This document shows, piece by piece, positions 10,303 to 62,895 of a DNA stretch of 64,000 nucleotides. The stretch's first letter is position 1. Every line of letters starts with the position of its first letter. A model generated the notes under the pieces. The model was not told where the DNA came from and made no database searches. It saw only the letters and a list, made by a program, of their open reading frames with translations. The translations under genes were made by a program, and so were the position numbers. The DNA is from Nitrospirales bacterium (GTDB lineage: Bacteria > Nitrospirota > Nitrospiria > Nitrospirales > UBA8639). The stretch spans positions 2,240,001 to 2,304,000 of the forward strand of contig OY820905.2 of assembly GCA_963555755.3 (NCBI GenBank), read 5' to 3'.

Positions 10303-10457
10303 TACCCTTCCCTTGTTTAATTCTTCCACTTAATTTTCTGATTTAAGAAAACACAAACCCATCTTTCTGTTTTTTCTGGAAAGATGTTCGAGCCTGGATT
10401 TTTCTATCTCCCTATTTTTCAAAAGTGGAGAGGGGCCGGTTTGGATTGGAGATTGAT

Positions 10458-11732: not shown

Positions 11733-11887
11733 AGGGGAATGTTAAAAATGACAGCAAGCTGACGGGGTATGCAGATGGAAAATTATTTGAAAATCCCCCT
11801 AGCCCCCTTTTCCAAAGGGGGAACCTAATTGGTCGCACCGTAACAAGCTACGGGGAATAGTACGTTTAACAGCCTCGATAAGGAGGG

Positions 11888-13204: not shown

Positions 13205-13482
13205 GAGGGTCTCCCGAGTACTCAATGGCTACTACCATTGTGGCTTGTCGACGGTACCAAGACTCTACCTCACCTAACCTCTCCTTACAAAGGAGAGGGA
13301 TCTGAGGCAGGTAGGGAATGTTCAAAAAAGCATGCCCTGAGTCTTTCCGAAGGGTCTATCCAGCAAGGCCGCAGCCCTTTTGACGCGCGGAGCGTACTCT
13401 CGTACGTGAGCACGGCAAAAGGGCGAGAACGCCGCTGGCGGCTTTTTTCAACATTCCCGAATGGAAGAGGATCAAGACTCGA

Positions 13483-24866: not shown

Positions 24867-25904
24867 TTAAGAGGTTCGGTCAATCATGTAATGGAGACTT
24901 TTCTGGATGAAGGCTTTGTCGTCGCTCTCCGGGGCATCTTGATAAGCTTCAACAAAAACTTGTTCGGCTGCATCACGGAGTTCACGCGCACCAGACCGCG
25001 CGTACTCAATGCTTCCATATGTGTTCAGCAACTCCATCACCCTGTCAATGTCCTCAGCATACTTGCCATTGCGCGACTTAGATAGAAAGCCCTTCAGTTT
25101 CTGGGTCTCCTGCGGTGATCCTTTCCCAAACAAGTGGGAAAGCATGAGCGTCCGCTTTCCCTCGTAGAGATCTCCGGCAATTTCTTTACCGTATTTCTGC
25201 CGACTCCCTGTAAGATTCAAAATGTCGTCCTGAATCTGAAATGCTGAGCCAAGGAGATTTCCAAATGAGTTGAATCGGTCAAGGTCGGTGTCTTCAGGAC
25301 GTGCAATGAGTGCACCGACTCGGCAGGGATTGATAAAACTATACCAGGCAGTTTTCTTTAAGGTCATGAGGAGATAGTCCTCATCTGAAATATCGCACCG
25401 ATTGTCCCGGTTCCACCCTAGCTCAATAGCTTGTCCCTCGTGCGTCACCCTGCTCATGGTGTGGAACTCCTCCTCTAATTGACGTACTAGGTTGGGACTC
25501 AGGGTAGAGCCATTCTTTCTAAAGATACTCCAGCCTAACGCTTGCATCGCATCACCGACATTTACAGCGATTGGAATCCCGTATTGGGCATGCATGGTCG
25601 GATGGCCCCGTCGAAACTCACTCCCGTCTTCGATGTCGTCATGAACGAGAAACGCGTTATGGAGCATTTCAATCGCCGCTGCCGAGACAAGGGCATCCTC
25701 GATGCGACCTCCAAAGGCGCCACAAGTGGCCAGACAGAGAGCCGGGCGTAGCCCCTTTCCCGAACGTTCCAGAAACTCTCGTATCGGGGTGTACAAATAA
25801 CGACGCGGCTCTTTGTCGGGGATTGATCTTTGCAAGACGTCCATTATCTGGCGACGATAGTCATTCAACCGTTCAAGGAATGCGTTGTAGTCTTGAGAAT
25901 CCAT
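24867..25904 (-). CDS. Polyprenyl diphosphate synthase (GGPP synthase-like)
   Basis: GKGLRP, LVHDDIEDGSEFRRG (FARM), EGQAIEL, KKT, FQIQDDILN (SARM), DLYEGKRT. Confidence 0.93.
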   Translation of the reverse strand: MDSQDYNAFLERLNDYRRQIMDVLQRSIPDKEPRRYLYTPIREFLERSGKGLRPALCLATCGAFGGRIEDALVSAAAIEMLHNAFLVHDDIEDGSEFRRGHPTMHAQYGIPIAVNVGDAMQALGWSIFRKNGSTLSPNLVRQLEEEFHTMSRVTHEGQAIELGWNRDNRCDISDEDYLLMTLKKTAWYSFINPCRVGALIARPEDTDLDRFNSFGNLLGSAFQIQDDILNLTGSRQKYGKEIAGDLYEGKRTLMLSHLFGKGSPQETQKLKGFLSKSRNGKYAEDIDRVMELLNTYGSIEYARSGARELRDAAEQVFVEAYQDAPESDDKAFIQKSLHYMIDRTS

Positions 25905-25929
25905 GGATCGATAAACCTATTGGGGGTTC

Positions 25930-27999: not shown

Positions 28000-28571
28000 T
28001 TCTTTGCTCCTTGCTGAGTTTCCGTTGTCTGCTCTTGGCCGAGCCTCCCGGCTTGGTCTCTTCAGGGGTTTAGACTTAAGCCACGGACACTCACTTGATT
28101 TCCTTTCACTAAACTAAGACTTCACCTCCTGCCGGTATTCGCCAATGAAAGTTACCCTCCTTGTCGGATTCCTCTTTCTTGGCAATGCCAAGACTTTAGA
28201 AAAATAAAAATCCGTGTCTTCGCCTTTGTGTGCATTGAAACGGTTTTATCATCAGGCACTCTTCTCTATCGAGAATTACTGATCAGGTCACTAAATTGTT
28301 CGTGTCCACGTGTCAATATAAGAAACTGGCTTCCACGGAACTTCTGATCTTTCCACTTTTTTGCGTCATTCCCGCCTGTCGTAAGCGGGAATCCCTCTTG
28401 TTCCGTCCGGATGGATACCCGCCTCAAACCGCGGGTATGACGGCTAATGCCGGAGTTGGCTTGACCTCGTGCATAACACTATTGCGTGGCCATGCCACCA
28501 CCCGAGAGGCGCAGAAAAAATATGTCGGTCATGCCGCTTGATCGAATCGTACGCACTATTTACCGGTTTCC

Positions 28572-29168
28572 TCAGTAATTCCTTGGATCCTTAAGGTAGA
28601 GTCTTGTACTAGACTGCCATTCTTCCCCCTCATCAATAATGATTTCGATTGGGAATTCCGGATCGAAGGGGTGCTCGCCCTCACTTGGCATGTCAAATTT
28701 TAGCGGGTCTGGGCTTATATCATCATGCCCCAATGCATCTATTTTTTCTTTTTTTTGTGGTTCATCGGTTTTTTTATCGCCCCCAATATCACGGTAAAGG
28801 CCATCCATGAATCTTAGCGTCACCTTTATTTTATTATCCTTATCCATGTCTCCGCCTTCGTTCTTGATTTGTATGTGAATCTGCCACTTAGGTATATCTA
28901 TCCATTTTCCGTTTTCACGCGTTTTGTCCTTTCCAGAAAGGTATCCCCAAGAAGGTATGGGGACCAATTTAGGAGGCTTTGGGGTGGTATCTGAGAAAGC
29001 ATCTTTAAGAGCCTCAACGAGTTTATTTTGGTCTTCGCTCATTTTGCCACTCCTTTTCTTGGTGGTTGTCTTTTTACGAGGTGGTTTCTTTGTGCTGCTT
29101 GTTTTCTTAGTGATTGTCTTTTTACGAGACGATTTCTTTTTGACAGGTTTTTTCTTCATAATCGTCAA
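28572..29168 (-). CDS. Hypothetical protein with very basic Lys-rich N-terminal tail
   Basis: KKKPVKKKSSRKKTITKKTSSTKKPPRKKTTTKKR; starts 24 nt after the encapsulin stop, with a GAGGGGG RBS. Confidence 0.7.
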   Translation of the reverse strand: MTIMKKKPVKKKSSRKKTITKKTSSTKKPPRKKTTTKKRSGKMSEDQNKLVEALKDAFSDTTPKPPKLVPIPSWGYLSGKDKTRENGKWIDIPKWQIHIQIKNEGGDMDKDNKIKVTLRFMDGLYRDIGGDKKTDEPQKKEKIDALGHDDISPDPLKFDMPSEGEHPFDPEFPIEIIIDEGEEWQSSTRLYLKDPRNY

Positions 29169-29192
29169 TACACCCCCCTCTGTTTTCTAGAG

Positions 29193-30095
29193 TTAGGATG
29201 ACATAAGCCAAATAGCTTCCGGTTGCTTGATGCGGAGGGTTAAGCGCTGGGACACGCGGTAGATTTGACGAGTCTCCTCCGTGGCCTGGAGAAACTTAAC
29301 TGAGATATCGTTGGCTAATACAAGGTCAACATTTTCTCCGGCAAGCGATACCAGAACTCCTTCCATATTGGTTAGTGTGCTGGACCTTAGTAGGGGACCA
29401 TTCAATATGGGTTTGATGCGGTCAACAGGCATAACAAGTGAGCTAGTAGGTGTATGAGCCAAATCAAAGAGGTCTGGTCCTAGTACGAGGGCGAATGGAG
29501 ATAAATGCCCTTCTCTTTCGAGGTTTGTGATCATATTCGAGACCCGCCTCACTAACCAGTTTCCGGTGAGCCCAGCCACAGTGCCGGGAATGCTTGTAAA
29601 GTGTCGTGGGGTATTATCTAATCGAGCCGCTTGAGTGAGCCCATTCCATTGTTCTCCGCCCGTAACGTTAAAAACTGGAGGCATCGGAGCAAATGTACGG
29701 GCGCGAATAACGGTTCTCTGCCCTTGAAAAACCAGGTTGTCCTGGATCCGAGCAAGGATCAACGCCGCACGTCGAAACATGTTGAGAGCGCCGGAAAGGT
29801 CTGGATCTTTGGCCTGCGCGGTAGTGAGCGGAACATTCACTGAGACGGTTGTGAGCGCTCGAGTCGTTACGGTGTTAACAGCTAGGCGGCTGGTCGCGAT
29901 ACCAACAGCTCGGGGAAGAGGCTGATTATTAACAAGTCTGTTTATCTGCACTGATTCCGTTTCAGGAGGCAAAGGCCCATGGATTGGCAAAAACGTTGCG
30001 GCGACGCGGACTTTGCGTACTTCATCACGAACTGTCTGCTGCACGAGGTTCCATTGGTCATCCGTCCATTGATTTGGGTAATTTTCCTGTTCCAT
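29193..30095 (-). CDS. Family 1-like (Linocin M18/HK97-fold) encapsulin shell protein
   Basis: 300 aa; WTDDQWNLVQQTVRDEVRKVRVAATFLPIHGPL, RRAALILARIQDNLVFQG, LEREGHLSPFALVLG, VDLVLANDISVKFL...RLTLRIKQPEAI match the recalled family pattern. Confidence 0.8.
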   Translation of the reverse strand: MEQENYPNQWTDDQWNLVQQTVRDEVRKVRVAATFLPIHGPLPPETESVQINRLVNNQPLPRAVGIATSRLAVNTVTTRALTTVSVNVPLTTAQAKDPDLSGALNMFRRAALILARIQDNLVFQGQRTVIRARTFAPMPPVFNVTGGEQWNGLTQAARLDNTPRHFTSIPGTVAGLTGNWLVRRVSNMITNLEREGHLSPFALVLGPDLFDLAHTPTSSLVMPVDRIKPILNGPLLRSSTLTNMEGVLVSLAGENVDLVLANDISVKFLQATEETRQIYRVSQRLTLRIKQPEAIWLMSS

Positions 30096-30223
30096 AGCTT
30101 CTTCCCCTCTCTTTATTGATTCACAACTATAAATAATAAGATGGTTCTGGGTTCCTTATTAAAGGTCTTCAAGATATCTGAACTCGTATCAATCGTTTGG
30201 TATCGACATCTGCCCCTCGAATC

Positions 30224-31099
30224 CTAAAACAATCCATACAGGTCGTATTCATAAACAGGCTCTTTCATCACGACCCGACCGATTCCGATGCATTGTAGTC
30301 GGTTGACCCATAAGTACTTGGGGTGAGCGGTGATCATTCGTGGGGTTGTCCTTGTGGGTGGCGTCGGTGGCCACTTTTTCTTCAGAAAGTTTTCGTATCC
30401 GTTCTCACCCAATTCGAAGTAACCCGGGTAGTGGATAAAGATCATTGCCCCATCTCCGGTCTCCAGGGTGGCACGCACATCCATGAGCCCAACCCCGTCC
30501 CGCCGAATGGTCATCCAGTCACCGCCTTCGTGATTTATCTTTCCATTGAGCTTTGTTCCGGTAACCTCACCACTGCTTATGTACCAATTGACCTTAATGC
30601 CCTCCGGAGTCTCTCCGATGATCTCTGGGTCACCGCCGCCAAGATGAATCGTAAAATGGCAAAGGTATTCGAGGCTGAACGGCAAACGTCCTTCAAGCAG
30701 ATTTGGTTGAGATGCCGCGTCCAGGATAGGGGTAGGCGCGGCGGCCCGTGGGACTTCAAATTGACGGTTCAGACCCGTCACAGCACATGGGTCCGGAACT
30801 CGGCGCCCGCTATTTTCGCCGATGACGGTATACTCGACCTTCGACCCAGGAAGGAGCCTCGGAAAGGATACTTTGAAGTACTGTCGCCCGGCACCCTGTT
30901 CAGTTCGCAACAGGGTTGCGCGGACGGTGCGCTCGAAACCTCCATCGACACGATACAGTACACTTACCGTATTGCTTGGATTCGCAGGAGAGACACCTGC
31001 TATTACACTGAGGTTATCGGCGGAATCCACAACCCCATCGGGCGCGGGGGTGTCCTCTGTGCCATACCATAGTGTGAGCCCCTCGTGGGTGTAACGCAT
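30224..31099 (-). CDS. DUF3237-domain protein with N-terminal Ig/CBM-like domain
   Basis: IGETPEG...GEVTG..LNG...GGDWMTIRRDG..MDVRATLETGDGAMI...RTTPRMITAHPKYLWVN. Confidence 0.8.
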   Translation of the reverse strand: MRYTHEGLTLWYGTEDTPAPDGVVDSADNLSVIAGVSPANPSNTVSVLYRVDGGFERTVRATLLRTEQGAGRQYFKVSFPRLLPGSKVEYTVIGENSGRRVPDPCAVTGLNRQFEVPRAAAPTPILDAASQPNLLEGRLPFSLEYLCHFTIHLGGGDPEIIGETPEGIKVNWYISSGEVTGTKLNGKINHEGGDWMTIRRDGVGLMDVRATLETGDGAMIFIHYPGYFELGENGYENFLKKKWPPTPPTRTTPRMITAHPKYLWVNRLQCIGIGRVVMKEPVYEYDLYGLF

Positions 31100-48761: not shown

Positions 48762-48937
48762 TGTATACTGGTGGATACGCCTCTGTATCTAAAAGATACA
48801 GGTCAATGTGTCTTTTTTGGGAGAACCCACATTCTCTCTCTAAATGTCCCACCCTACTCATTTTCGCAACAAAACAACATGTTATGGTGTTTGCGTATTA
48901 ATTTGTTCTCTCATAGGTCATTGGCATGAGCTTTGCT
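48762..48937 (+). promoter_or_regulatory. Sigma54 promoter (48921-48937) with upstream TGTAT-N-GATAC dyads
   Basis: TTGGCATGAGCTTTGCT; TGTATACTGGTGGATACG (48762) and TGTATCTAAAAGATACA (48784). Confidence 0.75.
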
Positions 48938-49105
48938 TCTATAAATTAATAGGGATGACTCAATTTTCTTGGTGGAGAAAATGCCAATGTTCCTGACACG
49001 GAAGCACATGTCCTTACGTCTGAAAAATGTTGTGGTCTACCGAAGACACAAACATTACCGACGTATTACAGGCAAGGAAATTAAAGTCTTGACATTAGTG
49101 TGTAC

Positions 49106-50191
49106 CTTGCTTATCCTGTTTGCACACCAACGTACTACCTATAGTAGATTGGCCGTAGATACATGAGCGCAATGATCCCAATCCCCGTTGTAATGGCCTC
49201 GATACGTGGGGCCGGGCACCTTCAGGCCGATACCCAATAGGGAAGCGAAAGCCGGCATCGGGTAAAAGCGACGGTTGAACCGGAATACGAATTCATTCAG
49301 AGAGGCCGACAGGTGTTGCGTGCTGACGCTATGGTGAGTTTCCATCAGCCCAGTCGTCAGATTCGAGAAGGCGATGTGGATCATAGGGAGGTGGATATCG
49401 GGTTTCTCGCGATCGCCATTGCGCATCATGGGCTCGTGCGCGTACCCCAATTGTGTCAGATTGTCGTAGCCGCCCCATCCGTCGGTGCGCACCCTGGCGC
49501 CCGTGACTACGCTCTCCTGCACGAACCCCGTGAGCGGTTTGGCCCCGCGGTTTGGCACGAGACACAAGCGCAACCTTCCTGCGTAAACGGCTCGGTGGGG
49601 CTGTTTGCCATCAACGCCGAGCGGCCGAGGGCGAACTTCGATGGCACCAGCAACCATCGATTGATGGTGGACGCCACGTCCTTTGCCCTTGGTGCGCCCA
49701 CCCCCCAGCGTTTCAGCCACCTCGACTGGCCAATCTGCGCCAATCCGGTCTCGGTTGGGGCGAACCATGCCAGCGCGGAGCTTGTGGAGCATCTGGAATG
49801 CGGTCTCGTAGCGAGTCAGTCCAAGCTGGCGCTGAAGCTGCACCACAGACACGCCGGGCGTTTGCATCGTCACCAGATACGCGCCCAAAAACCACGCCTG
49901 CAAGGGCGTCCTTGTCGCAGGCATGACGGTGCCAGCGGTCAGCGCCACATCACTGTGGCAATGTCGGCATCGAATCATCCGTGGTCTCGTGACGATGCGC
50001 TGCGCCTTGCTGCTCACGCCGCACGTTGGGCACGCAAATCCGTCCGGCCACCGGATGGCCGCAAGAGAGGCCGCACACGCCATTTCGCTGGGACACATCT
50101 GTTGCAACTCAAGCAACGACTGGGGGTGGCGAATGTCCATGACGATCATACCCTCCCTATAGCGTGAGGGTGTGTCAACCGGATAAGCAAG
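49106..50191 (-). mobile_element. IS1595-family element with degenerate transposase (about 49139-50140)
   Basis: IRs CTTGCTTATCC(T/G)GTT...; 8-bp target duplication GTGTGTAC; RWPDGFACPTC, EFVFRFNRR; first catalytic Asp appears lost (VEVAET). Confidence 0.9.
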
Positions 50192-50369
50192 GTGTGTACT
50201 TCTTAGAATTATACCCCTACGTACATAAACAAATTCATCTTTACTGGTGACACACGTCACAGATTTTTCCGACACGTTGGTAGTAAGTAGACATACATGC
50301 ATCTCATACGGCATGAGGCATTGACCCCAATTCACTCCGCACGCTTTAAGACAAGCAGAAGGAGGTTCC

Positions 50370-51208: not shown

Positions 51209-52177
51209 TTGCTCTATTTTTATCGAATAGGCCTCTCTCCTCCTTCCGCATTCCTTTTCACCCTCAAGCTTGCTGTAATTTTCACACTGACCGCCTATCT
51301 AGGCATGGGCACGCAAGCATCAGCTTGGGGCCAAGACATCGTCATTCTCAAATCCGCCGACGTGGGTCCCTATAACGCGGCGGCTTCCTCCTTCAAAGAG
51401 ACACTCTCTCCCGAGGTCAAGATTTTGGAGTATGACCTCCAGGGAGGCCTTGCCCAAGGACGAAAGCTTGGCCGGAAAATCCGGGCCTCCCCAGCCAAAC
51501 TCGTGGTAGCCATTGGTCTCAAAGCGGCCCTGGCCGCCAAACTGGAAATCCTCGATATCCCCATTATCTCTTGTATGGTGTTGGCTCCTACCAAGTACAA
51601 TCTCACCCGGGACAACATGACAGGCGTCAGCCTTAGAATTCCTATCAAAAACCAGTTTACGTTGCTCCAAAGCCTCGTTCCCGGCTTGAAGCGGATCGGG
51701 GTCCTATTTGATCCCACAAAAACGAAGCACACCGTTCAACAGGCCAAAGCTTTGGCCTCAAAGCAAGGGTTACAGTTGCTTGCCCGGCCCGTGTCCTCTC
51801 CCCAGGATGTTCCAGCCATGTTGCGAGCGCTGCTGCCCAACATTGACGTGTTGTGGCTCATTCCCGACAGCACGGTGCTAACTGAAGATTCTCTGGACTT
51901 TCTGTTGAGTACGACATTAGAAGCACGAATCCCGATATTGGGATTTTCTTCTGGCCTGGTCCGAAGCGGGGTTCTCGCCGGGTTGTATATCAACTATACC
52001 AAGGTTGGTGAGCAGGTCGCTGGACTCGCAGAGAAACTTCTGAAGGGGGAATCTATTCCTCAAGGCACCCTTCTTCCTCCTGAACACGTGAGCTTAGCGA
52101 TTAATCGTCAAATCGCACAGTACTTCGGCATTACCGTTCCCCCACAACTGTTAGCCGATGCTGAAGAGGTGTATTAA
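51209..52177 (+). CDS. ABC-type periplasmic substrate-binding protein acting with a sensor kinase
   Basis: LVVAIG, TGVS, KRIGVLFDP, WLIPDSTV, LAIN motifs; no permease or ATPase adjacent; start uncertain. Confidence 0.85.
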   Translation: MLYFYRIGLSPPSAFLFTLKLAVIFTLTAYLGMGTQASAWGQDIVILKSADVGPYNAAASSFKETLSPEVKILEYDLQGGLAQGRKLGRKIRASPAKLVVAIGLKAALAAKLEILDIPIISCMVLAPTKYNLTRDNMTGVSLRIPIKNQFTLLQSLVPGLKRIGVLFDPTKTKHTVQQAKALASKQGLQLLARPVSSPQDVPAMLRALLPNIDVLWLIPDSTVLTEDSLDFLLSTTLEARIPILGFSSGLVRSGVLAGLYINYTKVGEQVAGLAEKLLKGESIPQGTLLPPEHVSLAINRQIAQYFGITVPPQLLADAEEVY

Positions 52178-54476
52178 CCATGAGACGGTTGCATCAGCCA
52201 TGACGAGTGACACTCAACAACCCGAACCTATTCGAATGGTGAGTTTACGAACCAAGTTTATTGTATTCATTAGTGTCATCATTGTTGCGGTGTGTTCTGG
52301 CCTCAGTTGGTATGTTGTCAATCAGCAATCCCAAATCATGGTCCAAGCCTTAAGGAAAATCGGCCTGGTGATCGTGAAAAATTTGGCCTATAACAGTCGC
52401 TTTCCGCTGATTGCCAAAGACACTATGTCTTTGGAACGGTTATTGGATGGGGCCTTGAAGATCGACGAAGTGGTGTATGTGATCATGACTGACCCCCAAG
52501 GGGTCCCCCTGGTGGCCAAGAGCAAGGGGGCTCTCCGGGCCGGAAGGCGAACACGGATCGCGGAAAGCCCCGTGTATCCGGATAGCCACATCGTTCAATC
52601 ATTGCTGGCCATTTCACACTCCGATCCCGTCATTATTTCGTTCAAAAGCGATACCCAGCCAGGCACAGGTCCTGACACCTCATCTTCACCATGGTGGAAT
52701 CTGCAATTCACCGATCAGACTGAACTGCTGTACGATTTCGCCATCCCTGTACGCCGACGCATATCCTCCGACCCATTATTGGGCCCTCTTGTGTTGGAAC
52801 AACAGGAAAATATTGTGGGATCGGAGTTCTCGGGTCCGCCCGGAAGCCCGATCCATGGAATCGTGCAGGTTGGAATCAGCAACGAAAAAATGATTCAACA
52901 GCTCAACGACCTGGTGCGGAATATTGTCCTCATCACGGTCTTAATTATCATGCTAGGAATTATGGCTACCGCGGTATTAGCCAACCGTATCATCAATCCA
53001 CTCCGGAGTTTAGCTGAGGTTGCCAAAAAGGTCTCAACTGGAGACTTTTCCGTCTCTCTGGAGCCCACCACACAGGATGAGGTGGGTGAATTAACGACCG
53101 TGTTCAACACGATGACACAAGCCATTCGCGATCGGGAGCAGGCGATCTCGGCCCAAGTCGCCACGATCACCAAACATGCAAATAAATTAACCACGCTCAA
53201 CCAAACGGGTTCTGCCATCGCCTCACATTTGGATCTGAACACCCTCCTCAGTACGGTGTTGCACCTCCTCGTTGAAAAAGTCGGGTTTACACACATGTTG
53301 CTCATGCTCTACGACCGTGATCGAGGAATTGCGCATAAAGGACAAACCGCAGGCATTTCAGAAGACCTCGATGCCCATGTTCGGTCCCTCGAAATCTCGA
53401 TTCGCGAGGATGGCACCATTCATGCCGATCTCTTGCTTCACGGAGAGGCCTTTTTCGTTCCGAAGATTGATGTGGTGAGTGCTCGCATGGATCCGAAGAT
53501 TCGCGCGGTTCTTCAGGAACTCGGCACGACATCTTTTGTGTGTGCGCCACTGAATAGCCAGCAACACATCATGGGGTTTATTACCGCAGATAGTACCCCA
53601 CAAACTTGTACGCAGGAAGATCTGGAATTGTTAATTACCATCGCGAACACTGTGGGCGTGGCTATTGATAATGCCCGGGCCTATCAGGAATTGGAACAAT
53701 TAAATATTACGCTGGAACAACGAGTCGAGGAACGCACGCATGAACTCACCGAAGCGAATGTGAAGTTACAGGAGCTGGATCAGCTCAAATCGGTGTTTGT
53801 CACCATCGTCTCCCACGAGCTTCGGACGCCCATGACCTCGGTCAAAGGGCTTGTGGAAAACATGCTTGATGGCTTAACCGGCGAGTTAACCGAGCGGCAA
53901 ACGTTTTATTTAAGTCGAGTCCGAGCCAATGTGGAACGGCTGACTCGAATGATCAACGACCTACTGGATTTATCTCGAATCGAAGCCGGGCGGATGGATC
54001 TCATTCCTGTTACCCTTTCCATGCCCGAATTAATCACCGAGGTTACCGAGAACTTGCAAGATATGGCCACCGAACATGGCCTCACGTTGACGATCGCCCA
54101 AGCTCATGCAATTTCGCCGGTTCGAGGCGACCTGGATAAAATGAGTCAAGTGCTCACGAATTTGGTCCATAACGCCATTAAATTTACTCCCCCCAATGGG
54201 AGCGTCCAAATAAGCGTGGTCAATAAGGACGATCAGTGGGTTCAAGTCTGTGTTGCGGACACGGGATGTGGCATTCCTCAGGAGGAACTGGAAACCATCT
54301 TTGAACGGTTCTATCGCAGTCCATCCAGCCCGCATCAATCCAAGGGTGCCGGCCTGGGCCTGGCCATTACCAAAAGCCTTGTGGAGCTACATGGCGGAAA
54401 GATCTGGGTCGAAAGCATCCAAGGAAAATGGACAAAATTTTTCATTACGGTTCCCGTCCATGGTTCTGCCAAATGA
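52158..54476 (+). CDS. Membrane sensor histidine kinase (HAMP-GAF-HisKA-HATPase)
   Basis: VSHELRTPM, NLVHNAIKFT, DTGCG, GAGLGL. Confidence 0.92.
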   Translation: MLKRCINHETVASAMTSDTQQPEPIRMVSLRTKFIVFISVIIVAVCSGLSWYVVNQQSQIMVQALRKIGLVIVKNLAYNSRFPLIAKDTMSLERLLDGALKIDEVVYVIMTDPQGVPLVAKSKGALRAGRRTRIAESPVYPDSHIVQSLLAISHSDPVIISFKSDTQPGTGPDTSSSPWWNLQFTDQTELLYDFAIPVRRRISSDPLLGPLVLEQQENIVGSEFSGPPGSPIHGIVQVGISNEKMIQQLNDLVRNIVLITVLIIMLGIMATAVLANRIINPLRSLAEVAKKVSTGDFSVSLEPTTQDEVGELTTVFNTMTQAIRDREQAISAQVATITKHANKLTTLNQTGSAIASHLDLNTLLSTVLHLLVEKVGFTHMLLMLYDRDRGIAHKGQTAGISEDLDAHVRSLEISIREDGTIHADLLLHGEAFFVPKIDVVSARMDPKIRAVLQELGTTSFVCAPLNSQQHIMGFITADSTPQTCTQEDLELLITIANTVGVAIDNARAYQELEQLNITLEQRVEERTHELTEANVKLQELDQLKSVFVTIVSHELRTPMTSVKGLVENMLDGLTGELTERQTFYLSRVRANVERLTRMINDLLDLSRIEAGRMDLIPVTLSMPELITEVTENLQDMATEHGLTLTIAQAHAISPVRGDLDKMSQVLTNLVHNAIKFTPPNGSVQISVVNKDDQWVQVCVADTGCGIPQEELETIFERFYRSPSSPHQSKGAGLGLAITKSLVELHGGKIWVESIQGKWTKFFITVPVHGSAK

Positions 54477-54726: not shown

Positions 54727-56925
54727 ATGCAGCATTCCTTCGAACAAAAAAACATCCAGGGATGGAACCTAGAAACAGCAGTTGGATCACAAAAGTCCGC
54801 GCAAGCTCTTGGCCCGCCTGGCAAAATAAAAAAATGCCTCATCACCACCGAGGTGACCACGACTTTTTGTATTTCACCATGCACGCCAATATCTTACACG
54901 TCTGTTTTGCGCCCAACCGCCGTTTCTAGGTTGAAAGCGGTAACTACCGGTTTTCTGAAGTATTTGGGATTGTGGGTGTGGTGTTCAACCCTTTTCCTGC
55001 TCCCACCAGCTGTTGGTGCCAACCCAGCACCCCAAGCTGCCCCCCCTCAAAGCTCCTCAGATCAGGCCTTGGATGATCTACGATTCCTTCAGGAAGAAAC
55101 CGTGAGCATTGCCGTCTTACACGAGCAACCCATCTCTGAAGCACCCTCGAGTGTCTATGTTATTACCGATGAAGACATCCGGCACTCCGGTGCCACAGAC
55201 CTTCCCACGGTTCTTCGTCGGGTACCCGGCATGGAAGTCATTCAAATGACCAGCGCAGACTTTAATGTCAGTGTTCGTGGGGACAATCAACTGCGAGCCA
55301 ATAAGCTGCTCGTGTTAATCGACGGACGTTCCATCTACGAAGATATTCAGGGCGAGGTCTTCTGGAAAATGATTCCCGTGACATTACCTGAAATTAAAAA
55401 GATTGAAATACTCAAGGGTCCCGCATCTGCCGTGTATGGGTTTAATGCTTTCGACGGTGTGATCAACATCATCACCAAGTCTCCGGAGGAAATGAAAGGG
55501 GTGCACGTGCAATTTGGTGGAGGGGAATTGGGCACCATTTCCAGTGCCGCGATCTATGCCGGAAAATACGATAAGCTGGGATACCGCATTTCAATCGGGC
55601 GAAATCAAACCAATCAATGGGAATCCAGAAGTAGCTTAGGGTTCCGAGTGCACAAGTTTAATGTGCAAACTGAGTACGACCTTTCCAATTTTGCCAACTT
55701 ATCAGTCTCTGGTGGGCTTGCGGATGCGAATCGGTACGATGGTCCGGTAACATCTTTGCTGACAATCCAAGGAGAACCGTCACAAGCCTATACGAAGGTC
55801 GAATATAAGCGACCGAACCTTTTTCTGAGAGCCTATTGGAACCGATCCAGCGTCCCCAATATGCTTCAAACCAATCCCCTCCTTCCAAGTTTTTTTACTA
55901 TCACCGACACAAACGGCAGCTCTATGCAATCTCGGAAATGGAATAGTTACAATTTTTCTGGACAGCATGCCCTGGAATTTGGATCCACCAACCGGCTGAC
56001 CTATGGCATGGACTATCGCCATAATTCAGTCTCAAGCAATTTCCTTGATGGATTCAGCCGCGAAAATCGATTCGGCGTCTATATACAGGATGAGTGGAAG
56101 ACCACTGAAAGTCTGACTGCAACTGGAGGCATTCGCGTAGATCTCCACACTGAAATCAATCCCACCTACAGCCCACGTTTCGCCCTAATTTACAGATTGC
56201 TCCCAAATCACACACTCCGAGGAACGATTGCCTTAGCATTTCGTCCGCCAACGATTTTCGAAACCCACACTGACACAAGAGCCGCGGCTTTCGGATTTGT
56301 TACTGGAACTCTTTCCGGGTCAAAACTCTTAAAGCCAGAAAAAATGATTTCTTACGAAATCGGCTATCAGGGTTGGTTTTTCAGGCACCGTTTGCGAGCC
56401 AGGATAGATCTCTTTTTCAACCATATATCAGACTTGATCAATTCGACGGGTGGTACGGGTGGTGCGGCTCTTGTATTCACCAATGCTGGGGAAGCAGATA
56501 TCTATGGCGGTGAAGCCGGGATTGAATTTTGGCCTCTCCCTTGGCTAAGCGGTTTTGCCAACTATTCGTTTCAAAACATTGACCAGACCTTCTCTGGAAC
56601 TTCCCGGCGCGCTGGGCCAGACTTTAAGGTCAATGCTGGACTCCGAGGAGAATGGGAAAATGGTTTCACTACAGAAGTTGTTCTTCATCACGTGGCTGGA
56701 GCCACATATCCCATCAGTAGTACTTTTGGTGTATTTGGAGCGACCCTCAACCCCAGAGTTGATAGTTATACCTTAATCAACTTTCGTGGAGGATATCGAT
56801 TTTGGAAGGACCAACTCGAACTGGCGATTTCAATTTTTAACGCATTGAATGATAAACACCAAGAGCATCCACTTGGAGAAATTATTGACTCGCGCGTAAT
56901 GGGTTGGATAACCCTTAGGTATTAA
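54727..56925 (+). CDS. TonB-dependent outer membrane receptor (true start possibly TTG at 54931)
   Basis: Plug motifs EAPSSVYVITDEDI, LRRVPG, LVLIDGRS, IEILKGPASAVYG; beta-barrel; C-terminal aromatic residue. Confidence 0.92.
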   Translation: MQHSFEQKNIQGWNLETAVGSQKSAQALGPPGKIKKCLITTEVTTTFCISPCTPISYTSVLRPTAVSRLKAVTTGFLKYLGLWVWCSTLFLLPPAVGANPAPQAAPPQSSSDQALDDLRFLQEETVSIAVLHEQPISEAPSSVYVITDEDIRHSGATDLPTVLRRVPGMEVIQMTSADFNVSVRGDNQLRANKLLVLIDGRSIYEDIQGEVFWKMIPVTLPEIKKIEILKGPASAVYGFNAFDGVINIITKSPEEMKGVHVQFGGGELGTISSAAIYAGKYDKLGYRISIGRNQTNQWESRSSLGFRVHKFNVQTEYDLSNFANLSVSGGLADANRYDGPVTSLLTIQGEPSQAYTKVEYKRPNLFLRAYWNRSSVPNMLQTNPLLPSFFTITDTNGSSMQSRKWNSYNFSGQHALEFGSTNRLTYGMDYRHNSVSSNFLDGFSRENRFGVYIQDEWKTTESLTATGGIRVDLHTEINPTYSPRFALIYRLLPNHTLRGTIALAFRPPTIFETHTDTRAAAFGFVTGTLSGSKLLKPEKMISYEIGYQGWFFRHRLRARIDLFFNHISDLINSTGGTGGAALVFTNAGEADIYGGEAGIEFWPLPWLSGFANYSFQNIDQTFSGTSRRAGPDFKVNAGLRGEWENGFTTEVVLHHVAGATYPISSTFGVFGATLNPRVDSYTLINFRGGYRFWKDQLELAISIFNALNDKHQEHPLGEIIDSRVMGWITLRY
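54766..54932. mobile_element. MITE family E (TIR AACCTAGAAAC); copies at 62124-62290 and partial 21620-21719
   Basis: 167 bp, inverted ends, multi-copy. Confidence 0.85.
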
Positions 56926-56978: not shown

Positions 56979-57152
56979 TGTATCTAAAAAGATAAACTCT
57001 GTATCTAATTGGATACAAATTCTCCTCATAATTTTAACATATGATTTTGTAGTACAAAAATACCTATTCTCCCTCTAACTGTTTAAAACTTCAAAGAAAT
57101 TTTTCGTCTCACGCCTATGAATGGGATAAAAAAACTCGGCACGAATTTTGCG
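56979..57152 (+). promoter_or_regulatory. Sigma54 promoter (57136-57152) with tandem TGTATC-N6-GATACA enhancer-like dyads
   Basis: TCGGCACGAATTTTGCG; TGTATCTAAAAAGATAAA (56979) and TGTATCTAATTGGATACA (57000). Confidence 0.75.
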
Positions 57153-57317
57153 TATGCGTAATAAGAATATTGAAAGGTCTCTCATTCCCAATAGAATTTA
57201 AAGGGTGAAAATCCATCCCCATTTCGAGAAACTCGATTGAGAGTACGAACGAGAAGACCTGGAAAGTAGGCTGGTGTTTCATTTATTATTCACTTTTTCA
57301 TTTTTGGGAGGTTCATC

Positions 57318-57512
57318 ATGCAAACCGTATCATCTCCTCAGCTCTCTATCGAGCTTGAAGATATAAATTCGGTGGAGACGGCTTTTCAGCCAGCACTGAA
57401 TGACTTAGGACTGCGCAACTGGAAAACGGGTCATGGGTTACCTGCAATGTGTACCTGCCAGTGTTGTTGCTCGTGTTGTGCGGCATCAGGTGAAGAACTC
57501 CTTTCAGAGTAG
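57318..57512 (+). CDS. RiPP precursor peptide with Cys-rich core CTCQCCCSCC
   Basis: 64 aa, GGGAGG RBS, acidic leader ending GHGLPAM, 7 Cys in 10 residues, directly upstream of the YcaO machinery. Confidence 0.88.
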   Translation: MQTVSSPQLSIELEDINSVETAFQPALNDLGLRNWKTGHGLPAMCTCQCCCSCCAASGEELLSE

Positions 57513-57640
57513 TGGGGCTCACCGTTTCCAACTGGCCTTGTTTCTGCTTTGTACAAACTTTACGGTTCACGGTGCACCAGTAAAGATCGTGTTAAAGCCA
57601 AAAGCAGGGTAGGTTTTTTTAGGAATTTTTGGATCTTGGT

Positions 57641-57668
57641 GAGAAGTGGAAGATACTCCCCACTTCTC
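57641..57668 (+). other. Stem-loop between precursor and modifying genes
   Basis: GAGAAGTGG-N10-CCACTTCTC. Confidence 0.55.
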
Positions 57669-57778
57669 CGGGTCCTGACACAAAGGGCTCCAATGATACC
57701 TTTTTTTTTATTTCATAAAAATTAGGTTTTCACACACGAGGCTGTGGCTATTCAGTTTAAAGAAATAGGACTCAAACC

Positions 57779-58873
57779 ATGACACCTGTCAATAGTGATC
57801 AAACGCTTTCCTCGTTGCCCGTTAAAATAATCCCCACCAAAAAAGGTGTCATCCTCAAGCGCGGATGCACCGAAGTACAAATTCGAGGGGAAAACATCGG
57901 TGCAATTATTGAGCAGATTTTCTCGATTTCAACAAAAAATAGGGTGACCAAAGACTTACTAGTAGAATACTTTTCCCCAGAAGTTCAGCCCGCTGTTGCC
58001 AAATTGGTCGATCAGTTCATTGAGCGCCGGTTTTTGGTTCCACATGCTTTTGACGATTCTCAAATGGAGTCTCATGAAGACAACACGGACATTTTTTATT
58101 GGCACTTCGATCAAACGAAAGCGGAAATCAGCCAACGATTGGATGCTCAGAAAATCACGATAGTTGGGGTCAATTACATTTCACGGCAACTTGCCATTTC
58201 CCTTAGTGAATCTGGGTTTACTCAGGTTGAAGTGGTCGACGAGCCTGGGTTACGAAATCTTCGGTTTTTCGACCCTCCCAGAGAATTACAGCTGCACCAT
58301 TGGCCGACTCCTTTGCGAACACCCGTAGCAATGAAACAGTGGGAAGCCGAGGCAGATCTCAACTCATTGGATTGCATTATTGCCACTTCAGATTTTGGTT
58401 CAGCTCCTATCCTGCGTGAATGGAACACGTATTGCATTCACCATAATCTTCGATTCTTTCCCATTGTATTGTCCAATATGATTGGCTACATCGGGCCACT
58501 CGTGATTCCACAAGAAACGGCCTGTTTCGAATGCCTCTTGGCTCGACAGAATTCGCATCTCAGTGACCCCAGCAGGAAACAGACAGTGGATCAGGTCGCC
58601 TTTGATAGCCAGAACATTGTAGGGTTCCATCCATCCATGGCGTCCATCTTAGGAGACATTGCTGCCATGGAGATGACCAAGTTCTATAGTCAATCCATGC
58701 CGTTGTGGAATGTGGGAAAACTCATCGAAGTGAACCTTTTGTCCTCTCGGATGACTCCCAGGAAAGTCCTGAAAATTCCTCGTTGTCCGGTTTGTAGTCC
58801 CTTACGCACACGTTCCGCTGTCACCCCTGACAAACCCTATTCACATTTTAGTTTTTCCCAGGCGCAATCATGA
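57779..58873 (+). CDS. TOMM leader-binding/cyclodehydratase partner (RRE + ThiF/E1-like)
   Basis: IGPLVIPQETACFECL and KVLKIPRCPVC zinc motifs; overlaps the YcaO start. Confidence 0.9.
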   Translation: MTPVNSDQTLSSLPVKIIPTKKGVILKRGCTEVQIRGENIGAIIEQIFSISTKNRVTKDLLVEYFSPEVQPAVAKLVDQFIERRFLVPHAFDDSQMESHEDNTDIFYWHFDQTKAEISQRLDAQKITIVGVNYISRQLAISLSESGFTQVEVVDEPGLRNLRFFDPPRELQLHHWPTPLRTPVAMKQWEAEADLNSLDCIIATSDFGSAPILREWNTYCIHHNLRFFPIVLSNMIGYIGPLVIPQETACFECLLARQNSHLSDPSRKQTVDQVAFDSQNIVGFHPSMASILGDIAAMEMTKFYSQSMPLWNVGKLIEVNLLSSRMTPRKVLKIPRCPVCSPLRTRSAVTPDKPYSHFSFSQAQS

Positions 58874-60204
58874 TGATCACCCGGAACTCTTCATTTCACC
58901 GTCTTGCCAACATCGTGGATGACCTAGTCGATGAACACGTTGGCATAGTGAAATACGTCAAAGAATTCCGTCGGGAATCCGGAATGCCCGACTTCTTCTG
59001 CTATTACGCCAAGGCCTGTAACACCCTGGCCTTTGGCCCATTCAAAAATTTTTCGAATACCGGGGGGGCTTCTGCCTTTAGAGAACTTGCGATGGCCAAA
59101 GCCATTGGAGAGGCAGTGGAGCGTTATTGCTCTGCTATTTATGATAAAGAATCCTTGCCCTTGATTTCATTTCGTGATGCGTCATTCCCCTGCATCGTTC
59201 CAGAAGAATTTGCGTTGTATGACGATGAACAATATTGTCAACCGGATTTCCCGTATATTCCGTTTACCCACGCTACTCCTGCCCGATGGACCCCAACTAT
59301 TGATCTCACAACGGATGAGACCTGGTATGTGCCGGCGGCAACGGTGTTTATGCCCTTTTGGTATGACGAAAAAAATGGAGAGCCCCCCATTGTCCAACCG
59401 ATTTCTACAGGTTTGGCCTGCCACTGTAGTTATGAAGAAGCCGCAATTTCCGCGATTTGTGAGGTCATTGAACGGGATGCCTTCATGATGACTTGGCAAG
59501 CGTGTCTTTCCAGGCCTCAAATTCTTATCGATTCCTTGAGTCTCAACAACCAAGACCTGGTTTCTCGATTCGAGCGAACGGGAAATTCAATTTTTCTCTT
59601 CCATTTGGCTATGGATCATGATGTTCCCATAGTGTTGGCTGTAGCTCGGTGCTCTGCAGAAGACGGGCCTGCCTTGTGTTTCGCGGCTTCAGCAGATTTA
59701 GATCCGGAAGATGCCGTTCGAAAAAGTCTCGAAGAATTGGCTCATACCCGTCGGTTGGCCCAAGGATTAAAATCAAATTTGCCCAGTATTGTGGCCGAGG
59801 CCGATTTTGAGGCCGTCAGTCATCAGGATGCACACCTACGATTTTACGGGGACCATGTGAACAGTCACTTCGCCGACTTTCTTTTTTCCTCGGAGGACCG
59901 AGTGGCTTTTCAAGAAATCAAACGTCCATTTGAAGGTGACACTCAAAATAATCTCCGAGACCTGATTGACCAGGTTCGCTCTGTGAACCATCGAGTTCTG
60001 CTGGCTGATCTTACAACCTCCGACGTCGGTGATCTGGGGCTTTCGGTGGTTCGGGCGGTGATTCCGGGATTCCATCCGTTGTTTATGGGACATGCGATCC
60101 GCTCACTTGGTGGAACCCGATTATGGGAGGTTCCCCAACGCATAGGACACCCTGGTGTGACTCGGGAAGGAGGAGACAACCCGGCTCCTCACCCTTATCC
60201 GTAA
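58870..60204 (+). CDS. YcaO cyclodehydratase (azoline-forming type)
   Basis: AIGEAVERY, STGLAC, EVIERDA, C-terminal PAPHPYP (PxPxP). Confidence 0.95.
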   Translation: MMITRNSSFHRLANIVDDLVDEHVGIVKYVKEFRRESGMPDFFCYYAKACNTLAFGPFKNFSNTGGASAFRELAMAKAIGEAVERYCSAIYDKESLPLISFRDASFPCIVPEEFALYDDEQYCQPDFPYIPFTHATPARWTPTIDLTTDETWYVPAATVFMPFWYDEKNGEPPIVQPISTGLACHCSYEEAAISAICEVIERDAFMMTWQACLSRPQILIDSLSLNNQDLVSRFERTGNSIFLFHLAMDHDVPIVLAVARCSAEDGPALCFAASADLDPEDAVRKSLEELAHTRRLAQGLKSNLPSIVAEADFEAVSHQDAHLRFYGDHVNSHFADFLFSSEDRVAFQEIKRPFEGDTQNNLRDLIDQVRSVNHRVLLADLTTSDVGDLGLSVVRAVIPGFHPLFMGHAIRSLGGTRLWEVPQRIGHPGVTREGGDNPAPHPYP

Positions 60205-60272
60205 ACCGTATCTCGTATTTCGTTCTTTCACGAGATGAGGACGACGTTTTTCTTAAAAAATGAGGTGATTTT

Positions 60273-61091
60273 ATGAATATGGATATATGGAATGAGTTGG
60301 TGCTCCCTTCCGCTACAGAGGACGTAGCTTGGGAGTTGTTTCACGAAAATTCAAAGCTTGGTCGGTATTTCGCAGCCTTGTCAGAAGAACAGGTGGTGCA
60401 AAAAACCAAAGAACTCCACGAGTCATTGCCCTATGAAGGGTATCCTAAGGTGGAATTACCAGCACTACTGGCAACTCCAACATCTTCGCTATACGAGGCA
60501 ATTCTGAATAGAATGTCTGTCAGAAATTTTGCTCCTCGCTCATTTTCATTAGAAGAAATTGCGACCTTGTTGCACTATGCCTATGGCACGACCCGGGATA
60601 ATGAGGGCACTAACCTTCCCAGGCCATTTCGAGCAGTTCCCTCTGGAGGAGCGCTCTACCCCTTGGAAATTTATTTTCATTGCGTGGACGTCAAAGGACT
60701 TGTCCCGGGGCTGTATCACTACAATGCGGCTGGTCATCATATTCGCTGCCTTAGCGAAGGCGACCAGCGAAAAACTATTGCCGAGTCCATCATTCAACCG
60801 GATGTGGCCTTGGAAAGTTCACTCATGATCTTTATTACCGCCATGTTTGAACGGACGGTTTTTAAATATGGAGACCGGGGGTACCGATTCACATTCCTGG
60901 AAGCGGGTCATGTGGCCCAAAATATGAATTTGATGGCCACGGCGCTCGAACTCGGATGCGTCAATATCGGAGGATTCTATGACCGGGATGTGGATGCGTA
61001 TTTGGGACTGGACGGCATCATGCATTCTACGATTTACCTCATGGCAATCGGAGAACCAACCTGTTCTGAGTCTATCGATGAAAAGACCTAA
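60273..61091 (+). CDS. SagB/ThcOx-type FMN dehydrogenase
   Basis: FHENSK, RMSVRNF, RAVPSGGALYPLE, GLYHY, KYGDRGYRF..LEAGH.AQN. Confidence 0.93.
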   Translation: MNMDIWNELVLPSATEDVAWELFHENSKLGRYFAALSEEQVVQKTKELHESLPYEGYPKVELPALLATPTSSLYEAILNRMSVRNFAPRSFSLEEIATLLHYAYGTTRDNEGTNLPRPFRAVPSGGALYPLEIYFHCVDVKGLVPGLYHYNAAGHHIRCLSEGDQRKTIAESIIQPDVALESSLMIFITAMFERTVFKYGDRGYRFTFLEAGHVAQNMNLMATALELGCVNIGGFYDRDVDAYLGLDGIMHSTIYLMAIGEPTCSESIDEKT

Positions 61092-61319
61092 TTCGTAATG
61101 GGTGACGCGTAATCCTTGATGCGTAAGGAGGACGAAGGTAAAAGTCAAAACGACTCTTCCGCTTCACGAACCACGCTTCACGTCCCTCATAGAACGCAAA
61201 GGGCAGCTTTTTTGGGACCAGTTGCAATTTTGGTGGAATTGGGACCTATTCCATGGCCCGCCGCAGGTCATGGGGACCGTGTTGAGGGGTGAACAGCCTG
61301 CTCAGGCGTGGCAGGAATG

Positions 61320-61500
61320 GCGAGATTTCTCCCAAGGGTCGAAATGACAAGAGGCGGAAGTGGTAAGGAGCAAGTCTGGTTGGATGAACAACGAGAAGGC
61401 TTCTTTCTGTCATTTCGAGTGCAAGGAGAAATCGCTTGGCCCGAAAGAACGTGACCCGGGCGGGAATGGGGGAGAGTTCTCCCAAGGGTCGAAATGACAA
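61320..61500. repeat. Cluster of REP-like palindromes (GTCATTTCGA.../...TCGAAATGAC)
   Basis: Three related units; other REP types at about 28366-28443, 39102-39130, 62995-63022, 6032, 19957 and 48633. Confidence 0.75.
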
Positions 61501-61654
61501 TGGACGAGGGGTGATACGGGCGGAGTGTCATAGGGTTTCGCCTTACTCCACCAAAATTGGGATTGATCCCTTTTTTGACAGGGATTGAGGTGTGGAGCAG
61601 CACGGTAACCGTAAACCAATACCCAACTTATTATGAGATAGCGCTGAGGTTACC

Positions 61655-62077
61655 ATGACATTTTCCGTGAGCATCCCAATCCATCCCAAAATTCTCACTG
61701 TTGATGACGACCCGGATATCGGGATTGCCCTGACGGATTTTTTGAAGCAAGAAGGGTATGCGGTCACTATGGTTGAGACTGGCCACGCCGCTATCGAAGT
61801 CTGTGAACACCATCAATTTCAGGCGGTGATTTTAGATTTAGGTCTTCCAGATTGTGACGGGTTGGAGGTGTTAACCCATATGCTGAACCGTGACCCTGGG
61901 CTTCCGGTCATTATCCTGACCGCCTATTCATCTCTCGAGCGATACACCCCTAAAGCAGAGCAGACCCGGGCATTTGCTTATTTGTTGAAACCATTCAATC
62001 GCAAGGAACTCAAAAAAACCATTCGTCGAGCCATTCAAACTCGCCCTCTGCCACACACGGATACGAAGCCTGCTTAA
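61655..62077 (+). CDS. Single-domain response regulator
   Basis: ILTVDDD, ILDLGLPDCDG, ILTA, YLLKPF. Confidence 0.9.
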   Translation: MTFSVSIPIHPKILTVDDDPDIGIALTDFLKQEGYAVTMVETGHAAIEVCEHHQFQAVILDLGLPDCDGLEVLTHMLNRDPGLPVIILTAYSSLERYTPKAEQTRAFAYLLKPFNRKELKKTIRRAIQTRPLPHTDTKPA

Positions 62078-62895
62078 CATGGGCCATCCATCTTGAATCC
62101 GATTTCGCTGGTGGTTTCACTTAAACCTAAAAACAGCAGTTGGATCACAAAAGTCCGCGCAAGCTCTTGGCGCACCTCGCAAAAGAGAAAAATGTCTCAT
62201 CACCACAAAGGTGACCACGACTTTTTCTCTTTCACGATGCACAGCAATATCTTACACGTCTTTTTTGCGCCCAACTGCTGTTTCTAGGTTAAACACGGCA
62301 GTTGAAAATCCCTTTTCCTTTCGATTGCCACCGTTCCCACGGCGCTCAGGGGAACGGACCTTCAAACAATGGGTGACGGTCACGCCACTCCGTTCGTGCC
62401 GAGTCCTGAGTTTGTCGAAGGGTCGAAGCATGAACCTGATTGCAAATCTTGGACAGGCTTCTAGGAGGCTGTCCGACATTAGGGATCATCGCGAGATTGC
62501 GCTGGTTTGAGGCAGCTTTTTCGATCGTTTGAGGCGAATAGTGGTGACTATTTAACGAAAACGATCGGAAAAGCTGGCCAAATTCAGCGCAATCGCAGTA
62601 GATCCGCTAATCTTGGACAGGCTTCTAGGTTCGAGGTATGGAAGGTGCCACTTCAATAGGAAAAGGCACTGCACAAAACTACGCAATCGTTTTTCGGCAG
62701 GATTTGCTACCAAGTTCTATTACTGACCCTCATTCAATCCCCGGGGTCTTCTAGCGTCGTGCAGTGAGGGCAATTCCGGAAGCATCGGCAATGCTGTTAC
62801 TCGGCACCAGCCTCGCAGAGATGGTGGTCTGGCGAAGGAAGCAAGAGGCGTAGTCGGAATCGCTTTTCAATACATCTTCCAGTGTAGTGATATCC

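Follow-up and report, generated by a model that had tools for sequence, protein, structure and literature searches.

In a 64,000-nucleotide stretch of the genome of a Nitrospirales bacterium (GenBank assembly GCA_963555755.3, contig OY820905.2, positions 2,240,001 to 2,304,000 of the forward strand; the whole stretch is called the window here, and its first letter is position 1), four genes on the + strand (57318-61091) encode a Cys-rich precursor peptide, a ThiF-like partner, a YcaO cyclodehydratase and a SagB-type dehydrogenase, in that order. We found that this cluster belongs to a Nitrospirales family, and that in all 28 genomes counted for this family it lies behind a gene for a TonB-dependent outer-membrane transporter. 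The chemistry of the cluster appears ordinary. What seems to be new, judging from sequence, is the context: a Nitrospirales family of linear azole peptides that travels with its own outer-membrane transporter in a sigma-54 sensing module. Tentatively, we read the product as a linear peptide with several thiazoles that would return to the cell through its own transporter and most likely serve as a cell-to-cell signal in a sigma-54 sensing circuit, a reading that we regard as possible rather than probable.

The precursor gene (57318-57512, +) was taken from the list of open reading frames (ORFs) and is preceded by a GGAGG ribosome site. Its 64 residues comprise a leader (residues 1-44), a Cys-rich core (residues 45-54, encoded at 57450-57479) and an acidic follower, AASGEELLSE (residues 55-64). 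The core, CTCQCCCSCC, contains seven Cys, one Thr, one Ser and one Gln. When all stop-to-stop frames of at least 30 aa in the genome were counted, only three of 93,880 had six or more Cys per 10 residues, and the precursor was the sole frame with seven. An earlier reading of the window, made from the letters alone (the sequence-only reading), had described these four ORFs, the seven-Cys core and the acidic follower, and the ORF list and the frame count bear it out. It had also called the precursor unusual, which holds in the sense that this is the densest Cys run in the genome but is too narrow, in that the peptide is one member of a family found in 28 of 401 Nitrospiria genomes. Close homologues retain both the leader and the Cys run. 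The precursor search of a protein collection returned two homologues, one of them named Ca. Nitronereus thalassa, and the nearest homologues and loci are annotated as Nitrospirales, Nitrospira or Ca. Nitronereus, with the exception of a 91% identical locus (L002) annotated as Nitrospinota. These names, together with a 1145-aa NxrA (1546 bits to PDB 7B04) encoded in the 4.62-Mb, 99.4% complete genome, confirm the guess of a nitrifier lineage. The window sequence is confirmed by assembled reads (run X11). Two RNA runs from one study gave exact contigs over the precursor (X1: 57217-57573) and over pieces of the enzyme genes, and a control stretch was equally patchy, such that the contigs cannot exclude DNA; the transporter gene was not covered, to which we attach no weight.

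The E1-like (C) partner is a discrete protein of 364 aa (57779-58873, +) that matches PF00899 and TIGR03882 above cut-off and scores 103.7 with the SagC model TIGR03603, below the cut-off of 188. Its structural model (pLDDT 88.8) has an N-terminal three-strand/three-helix domain of the RRE type followed by the E1-like domain, with LynD, TruD and MccB as the best fold matches (E 1e-16 to 1e-14), and the sequence carries two CxxC motifs, at 249 and 336. The YcaO protein (444 aa; 58870-60204, +), the only one in the genome, is above cut-off for PF02624 and TIGR03604 (289.9 bits; cut-off 219). Its motifs EAVERY, STGLA, EVIERDA and the C-terminal PAPHPYP align with those of TruD, and are presumably the ATP-site motifs and the azoline-type C-terminal PxP. 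The SagB-type FMN dehydrogenase (272 aa; 60273-61091, +) is above cut-off for PF00881 and TIGR03605 (156 bits; cut-off 78), with CyaGox and McbC as PDB matches, and contains a Lys-Tyr pair (FKYG) that we take to be catalytic. The family cut-offs and intact motifs uphold the enzyme trio named in the sequence-only reading, and they also support the linear azol(in)e pathway that it predicted. The conversion of Cys to thiazoles by this trio is established chemistry, and by analogy we consider azole formation by the cluster enzymes very probable. Such chemistry has been described for a similar cluster (PMC7298704, in part).

Matches to the YcaO at E 1e-10 occurred in 42 of the 401 Nitrospiria genomes. 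Only the 28 with matches at E below 1e-100, which fall into three families (f1, f2 and f3), were counted as family members; the 14 weak matches (no more than 29% identity; the one inspected, L046, lacked the other cluster genes), five loci identical to others, L001 and L023 were left out. With loci from further searches added, precursors were chosen by position, ribosome site and terminal Cys, which gave 46 candidates in 44 loci. They range from 42 to 170 aa and carry from one to eight core Cys (six to seven in the clade of the window, only one or two in eight of 44 cores). In 40 of the 44 distinct precursors, the core is preceded at a distance of 24-40 residues by a leader helix motif, hydrophobic-x-x-x-D/E-hydrophobic-x-x-hydrophobic (IELEDINSV in the window precursor, 57348-57374, +), compared with a mean of 0.8 and a maximum of five for shuffled sequences, the pattern having been written after the sequences were seen. 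It is likely the site bound by the RRE domain of the E1-like partner. In two loci (L026, 9079-9828, and L032) a pair of precursor genes stands in tandem, and the two peptides end alike, in Y-F-CC-[ST]-C. Family leader motifs with SCCCC-x-PCCC-AAA-type cores also occur in four loci that are annotated as Acidobacteriota, Acetobacteraceae, Vulcanimicrobiota or not at all (L008, L009, L010 and L013); each of the four carries a gene for a B12 radical-SAM protein, and in three there is also a Rieske oxygenase together with an alpha/beta hydrolase. No NCBIfam precursor family matches the 42 trimmed members or 10 other full precursors, and neither NCBIfam nor Pfam has a family that matches the window precursor. 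The literature searched, in which supplements and subscription papers were only partly covered and a genome-mining mention may exist, yielded no description of a YcaO peptide from Nitrospirales. So far, the product therefore stands as undescribed, as had been proposed.

Right about the enzymes and the precursor, the sequence-only reading missed the co-inherited transporter, the sigma-54 promoter with its enhancer boxes, and the TldD/E proteins encoded elsewhere. The transporter (54727-56925, +) has a plug and a barrel (PF07715, PF00593) and a TonB-box-like ETVSI, and is the single copy of its family in the window genome; its best NCBIfam model, NF053590, is below cut-off. The true start is probably near 54931, behind a repeat within the 5' end of the gene that has 271 BLAST matches in the genome. 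(Short multicopy repeats occur in the window at about 54760-54935, 61230-61530 and 62100-62290.) A transporter gene is found upstream and on the same strand in all 28 genomes with a strong YcaO match, directly in 24 and with one enzyme gene between in four; one of these copies runs off the end of its contig and another is split. Tree distances of YcaO and transporter are correlated (r 0.61 across 28 loci; 0.69 for YcaO and ThiF). This constant presence, and evolution along with the enzymes, make it likely that the product is released and later recovered by the cell, and we think that the transporter is probably the cognate importer of the product.

Phylogeny places the linked transporters together. 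In a tree of 87 copies, 29 cluster-linked transporters fall on one side of a branch and 58 others on the other (SH-aLRT 99), and linkage requires one change (shuffled mean 24). Linked copies from families f1, f2 and f3 are intermixed and do not join the other transporter copies of their own genomes. Copies with fewer than about 500 aligned residues were left out of the trees (partial copies of L002, L014, L015, L017 and L043, the split copy of L037, and L066, which has a stop). When 64 copies were added (a 151-row FastTree), the smallest clade with all 29 linked copies held 38 rows, and 62 of the 64 fell outside it. In the 10 loci with sensor genes, the transporter tracks YcaO (r 0.67) more closely than it does its own sensor genes (0.31 and 0.40), and binding protein and kinase track each other (0.96); in some of these loci, the sensor genes are found downstream, next to a different copy of the transporter. 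It is important to note that, as kin are not independent, the distance correlations show co-inheritance of transporter and enzymes, not binding.

The region between transporter and precursor contains tandem palindromic boxes, TGTATC-N6-GATACA (56979-56996 and 57000-57017, +; two matches in the window versus 0.04 expected), and, about 120 bases past the second box, a sigma-54 type -24/-12 promoter with one mismatch (57137-57152, +). Sites of this quality number six in the window versus 2.0 expected. Boxes and sigma-54 site are kept in seven of seven aligned promoters of close kin, with the GG and GC invariant in each, and the boxes are likely enhancer sites of a sigma-54 activator. In 84 module loci (1.30 Mb) the box has 74 matches, compared with one to three in each of five shuffles; 59 of the 74 precede, by no more than 1.3 kb, a match to ThiF, transporter, regulator, kinase or binding protein, and many are followed by a sigma-54 site 100-200 bases on. 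Genome-wide, 18 boxes with no more than one mismatch define no clear regulon, and a sigma-54 motif accompanies no more than two sites. Further perfect boxes lie on contig C1 of the window genome (G000), at 308744, 308775, 1680514, 524858 and 4214646; among them are two in tandem ahead of a sugar-type ABC operon and a single one ahead of two sigma-54 sites and a gene for a small secreted protein (labels by eye). A scan for sigma-70 promoters and terminators found nine promoter-like sites (5.9 expected) and six terminators (5.5 expected). RpoN and TonB are both encoded in the genome.

The rest of the sensing module surrounds the cluster. Ahead of the transporter are genes for a single-copy periplasmic binding protein (51209-52177, +; PF04392) and a HAMP-GAF sensor histidine kinase (52158-54476, +; family matches), and beyond SagB is a stand-alone receiver-domain protein (61655-62077, +; PF00072) that occupies the same place in L002, L014, L017 and L024. 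In L024, which is from the same genus, the cluster is followed by a gene for a sigma-54 activator whose 83% identical orthologue in the window genome (contig C1, 3321385-3322830) is about 1 Mb away; an activator of this type would bind the TGTATC-N6-GATACA box. (In family f1, the sigma-54 activator of the module has a conserved gene with Csm6-like HEPN and 6H domains nearby, at L024:17170-18429 and at 3324288-3325568 of contig C1 of G000.) A second pair of boxes, which are degenerate (48762 and 48784, +), precedes another sigma-54 site (48922-48937). These elements align with the same elements in L024, and are likely the promoter of the binding protein-kinase-transporter operon. An IS1595-family element (49104-50193, -; NF033547; 25-nt inverted ends), present in three copies in the genome and absent from L024, lies between this promoter and the operon, and its insertion could silence the sensor-transporter operon in the window strain. 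It might then be supposed that in this strain the whole cluster has fallen silent or begun to decay, the more so given the displaced activator gene and the repeat at the start of the transporter ORF. We consider this very improbable, as the four genes are whole in sequence supported by the assembled reads, their motifs are intact, and the cluster's own promoter is conserved.

Put together, these observations suggest the following scheme. The E1-like partner would bind the leader motif, YcaO would use ATP to cyclize Cys (perhaps also Thr and Ser) to thiazolines, and SagB would oxidize these to thiazoles, with a loss of 20 Da each. The calculated monoisotopic mass of the peptide is 6831.05 without modification, 6704.98 with seven thiazolines and 6690.87 with seven thiazoles. 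Host TldD/E may then trim the leader, and the peptide may be exported via an unlinked pump and re-imported by a TonB-dependent transporter specific for it. Once activated by binding protein and kinase, a sigma-54 response regulator would bind the boxes and raise precursor expression, closing a feedback loop that we put forward as conceivable, though not as the probable outcome. The reading as a signal rests on the hypervariable cores and tailoring, the shared promoter boxes, and the lack of metal-uptake genes nearby; cores with one to eight Cys and differing tailoring genes represent the variation expected of identity signals. A narrower version, which we think doubtful, is peptide quorum sensing or kin recognition, in which a lineage-specific thiazole peptide (plain poly-thiazole in the window; in relatives, altered by the peroxidase at a conserved Tyr, or carrying methyl groups or thioamides) is imported by a co-evolved transporter and read out by binding protein, kinase and sigma-54 regulator acting on the precursor promoter, while owners of the receptor without a cluster listen in.

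Several observations weigh against import and signaling as set out above. The transporter family is present in 166 of the 401 genomes (at most three candidates were scored per genome), most of which have no cluster. Judging by 100 comparison loci, hand-picked from the best-scoring matches listed, the transporter elsewhere mostly sits beside binding protein, kinase and regulator without a cluster (40 loci among the matches listed, and 48 of 60 further loci), and no ThiF, YcaO or SagB match was found in the 60 further loci examined. Thus, the module senses something else there. Linked transporters cluster strongly, but their strict monophyly is not stable: nine unlinked copies (two of the 64 added and seven earlier ones) fall inside the linked clade of the 151-row tree, which needs three changes (shuffled 27), a 60-row mixture tree needs two changes (with no starred conflict), and plug columns alone need four. 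Barrel identity is 0.49 within the linked group and 0.48 between groups. In the 10 loci with sensor genes, neither binding protein nor kinase follows YcaO in tree distance (r 0.15 and 0.19), which argues against their recognizing each peptide variant. Only nine of the 44 loci have a box directly before the precursor; elsewhere it stands ahead of the regulator or transporter, and several loci yielded no box. To these points may be added the separation of the sensor-transporter operon from its likely promoter by the IS1595 element in the window strain, and the four relatives outside Nitrospirota, in which there was no match to the TonB-dependent transporter. No exporter was found near any cluster, among the conserved neighbors and the unassigned ones scanned (52 of 58 listed, plus one activator). 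Finally, shared ancestry of a single insertion would equally give synteny and correlated distances.

This last point underlies an alternative in which the peptide is co-regulated cargo. The module would be a general switch with an exchangeable slot behind the transporter, the peptide a competition or surface molecule, and the transporter a neighbor by descent or an exit channel. One ancestral insertion would explain the synteny, no exporter is linked, and other copies do have other cargo behind them, including an oxidoreductase pair (L053) and secreted proteins (L032, L034, L120 and L124); in family f1 the slot is either occupied by the cluster or empty (L067-L069 and L087). We nevertheless judge this somewhat unlikely, given that the transporter follows YcaO more closely than its own sensor genes, that linked copies group across the three families and apart from the other copies in their genomes, and that no immunity gene is evident.

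The other alternative with a role for import is a metallophore, a thiazol(in)e array that would capture Cu, Fe or Zn outside the cell after its export and come back through the linked transporter, as methanobactin does with MbnT. Thiazol(in)es do chelate metals, and nitrite oxidizers need much iron. The synteny and co-divergence of the transporter fit this as well, as do the six to seven Cys in the clade of the window, and methanobactin operons likewise pair a ribosomal, Cys-derived heterocycle peptide with its own TonB-dependent transporter, whose plug diverges with the product, and many loci include a peroxidase gene (PMC3621798, in part). Set against this, neither a MATE exporter nor an FecIR pair nor a metal-handling gene was found among the conserved or scanned neighbors, control appears to be via a two-component sigma-54 module, eight of the 44 cores have only one or two Cys, and counts of His, Met and Cys are alike in linked and other transporters. 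On balance, a metallophore seems unlikely. Methanobactin proper was rejected, the cluster enzymes being YcaO, ThiF-like and SagB proteins rather than MbnB and MbnC; the family also differs in having a DyP-type rather than a di-haem peroxidase and a different transporter family. Still, methanobactin with MbnT offers the nearest known logic, and the discrete linear azole peptides the nearest chemistry.

With those peptides (microcin B17, streptolysin S and other cytolysins, hakacin, gallolytisin) the cluster shares a precursor, an E1-like C protein, a YcaO D protein, a SagB-type B protein, and the lack of a dehydratase. Gallolytisin cores are Cys4-X-Cys4 and cytolysin clusters have linked transporters of the ABC type along with a CaaX-like protease (PMC4603692, in part; section 8 for the latter). 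Neither such transporters nor such a protease were found in our cluster or among the conserved and scanned neighbors, and the window family differs further in its own leader motif, fixed TonB-dependent transporter and sigma-54 boxes. A streptolysin S-type cytolysin was rejected, as the class wants Gly followed by at least 10 cyclizable residues, and the window core has nine in a 10-residue run after Met. Neither Nitrospira nor TonB appears in the main text of PMC4603692 as far as consulted, nor Nitrospira in two of its supplements. The sponge srp proteusins (LCCCW core, YcaO, brominase) resemble the family in their short terminal Cys run, sometimes Trp-ended (L003-L005 and L031), and in leader sequences (LTEEQL/ITEEQL) similar to the family motif (bioRxiv 2023.06.09.544420, in part). 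However, srp leaders are nitrile-hydratase-like, and no such model matched the precursors of the window family; no halogenase was found among the conserved neighbors of the clusters.

It had also been noted that the leader end recalls thiazolylpeptide leaders. The likeness is real, in that PbtA, the GE2270A precursor, contains AGHGMP (PMC12309360, in part), but it is not diagnostic, as GHG occurs in only four of the 44 distinct precursors in the family, each of them closely related to that of the window, and no thiopeptide-precursor model matches. One could imagine a thiopeptide-related remnant, that is, a thiazolylpeptide pathway that has lost its dehydratase and pyridine synthase or uses both in trans. 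In favor are the GHG[LM]P ahead of a Cys-rich core in the window's clade (GHGLP and GHGMP), the CCSC common to the window core and PbtA, the azole-forming trio shared with GE2270 and thiomuracin clusters, and an Atlas search in which the precursor matched a thiazolylpeptide precursor cluster at 0.77 (best match FibroRumin, 0.81; both below lead level). A thiopeptide ring requires two Ser-derived dehydroalanines, one of them at the core start. The Cys run of the window precursor starts after Ala-Met, and that of close kin after Ala or His, with no Ser at the core start. The partner is not an F protein (TIGR03693, 21.7; cut-off 562). No [4+2] pyridine synthase, an enzyme ubiquitous in thiopeptide clusters (PMC4603692 section 12, in part), was found in the cluster or among its conserved neighbors. 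PF04738, PF14028 and TIGR03891 were not found in the window genome, and PF04738 was above cut-off in none of the 401 Nitrospiria genomes; these searches had no positive control, which makes the genome-wide absence of dehydratase and pyridine synthase less firm than the local one. Overall, a remnant of this kind is highly unlikely.

The absence of an adjacent dehydratase, pyridine synthase, protease or exporter gene, as first described, was confirmed at the locus. In the suggested check of the genome for a protease, TldD/E, encoded elsewhere, emerged as a candidate leader protease. Microcin B17 and klebsazolicin lose their leaders to TldD/E encoded outside their clusters, and microcin B17 similarly has no linked protease (PMC10885120, in part). 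A C39 peptidase transporter was not found in the genome, in a search with seven positive controls.

Relatives of the window cluster often carry additional genes. Across the 44 loci there are 18 with a DyP-type peroxidase, nine with a 488-aa protein, 11 with a methyltransferase, four with TfuA and a second YcaO, and four with a B12 radical-SAM protein; the clade of the window carries none of these, and the window genome has no homologue of the peroxidase or the 488-aa protein. The peroxidase gene follows SagB (e.g., L003:16037-17464, L004, L025, L033 and L039), and the precursor has Gly-x-x-Tyr before the Cys run in 18 of 18 such loci versus 0 of 17 without the gene, for a motif defined after seeing the data. 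The covariation amounts to one independent pair on starred branches and five on all branches, and is not significant; a peroxidase-made Tyr cross-link is possible. The 488-aa protein, which has no Pfam or NCBIfam family, follows SagB in nine peroxidase-free loci (e.g., L012:12143-13609 and L011:12119-13585). It has an invariant HExxGH and a downstream Glu, and its best structural matches are neprilysin-type zinc peptidases, at a middling Z of 6.6 (VIA), with no Foldseek match at E 0.001. It is a candidate leader peptidase. In L003, L006, L012 and L044, the second YcaO with TfuA (thioamidation type) is downstream of the cluster. In L037 (7064-12330) the transporter, ThiF-like and YcaO frames are all broken and binding protein and kinase are whole, which indicates joint decay or an assembly error.

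Elsewhere in the window, a row of polyprenyl synthase-like, flavin oxidase-like, encapsulin-like (300 aa) and DUF3237-like ORFs occupies 24867-31099 (-), and 40 kb from the cluster, at 10425-16605 (+), CusCBA-like heavy-metal efflux genes are followed by a MerR-like regulator gene (labels by eye in both cases).

Nitrospirales carry out much of the nitrite oxidation in soil, the sea and treatment plants, and the linear azole peptides known are for the most part toxins or antibiotics. If true, a signal or metal carrier made from a modified peptide and paired with an outer-membrane transporter of its own would be new for Nitrospirales and unusual for linear azole peptides. It would also provide the first candidate ligand for the transporter-sensor module of those 166 genomes. 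The family offers about 44 natural sets of substrate, enzymes and transporter along with a four-gene minimal member, and two candidate tailoring enzymes, the DyP-type peroxidase that co-occurs with a precursor Tyr and the zinc-peptidase-like protein without a Pfam family.

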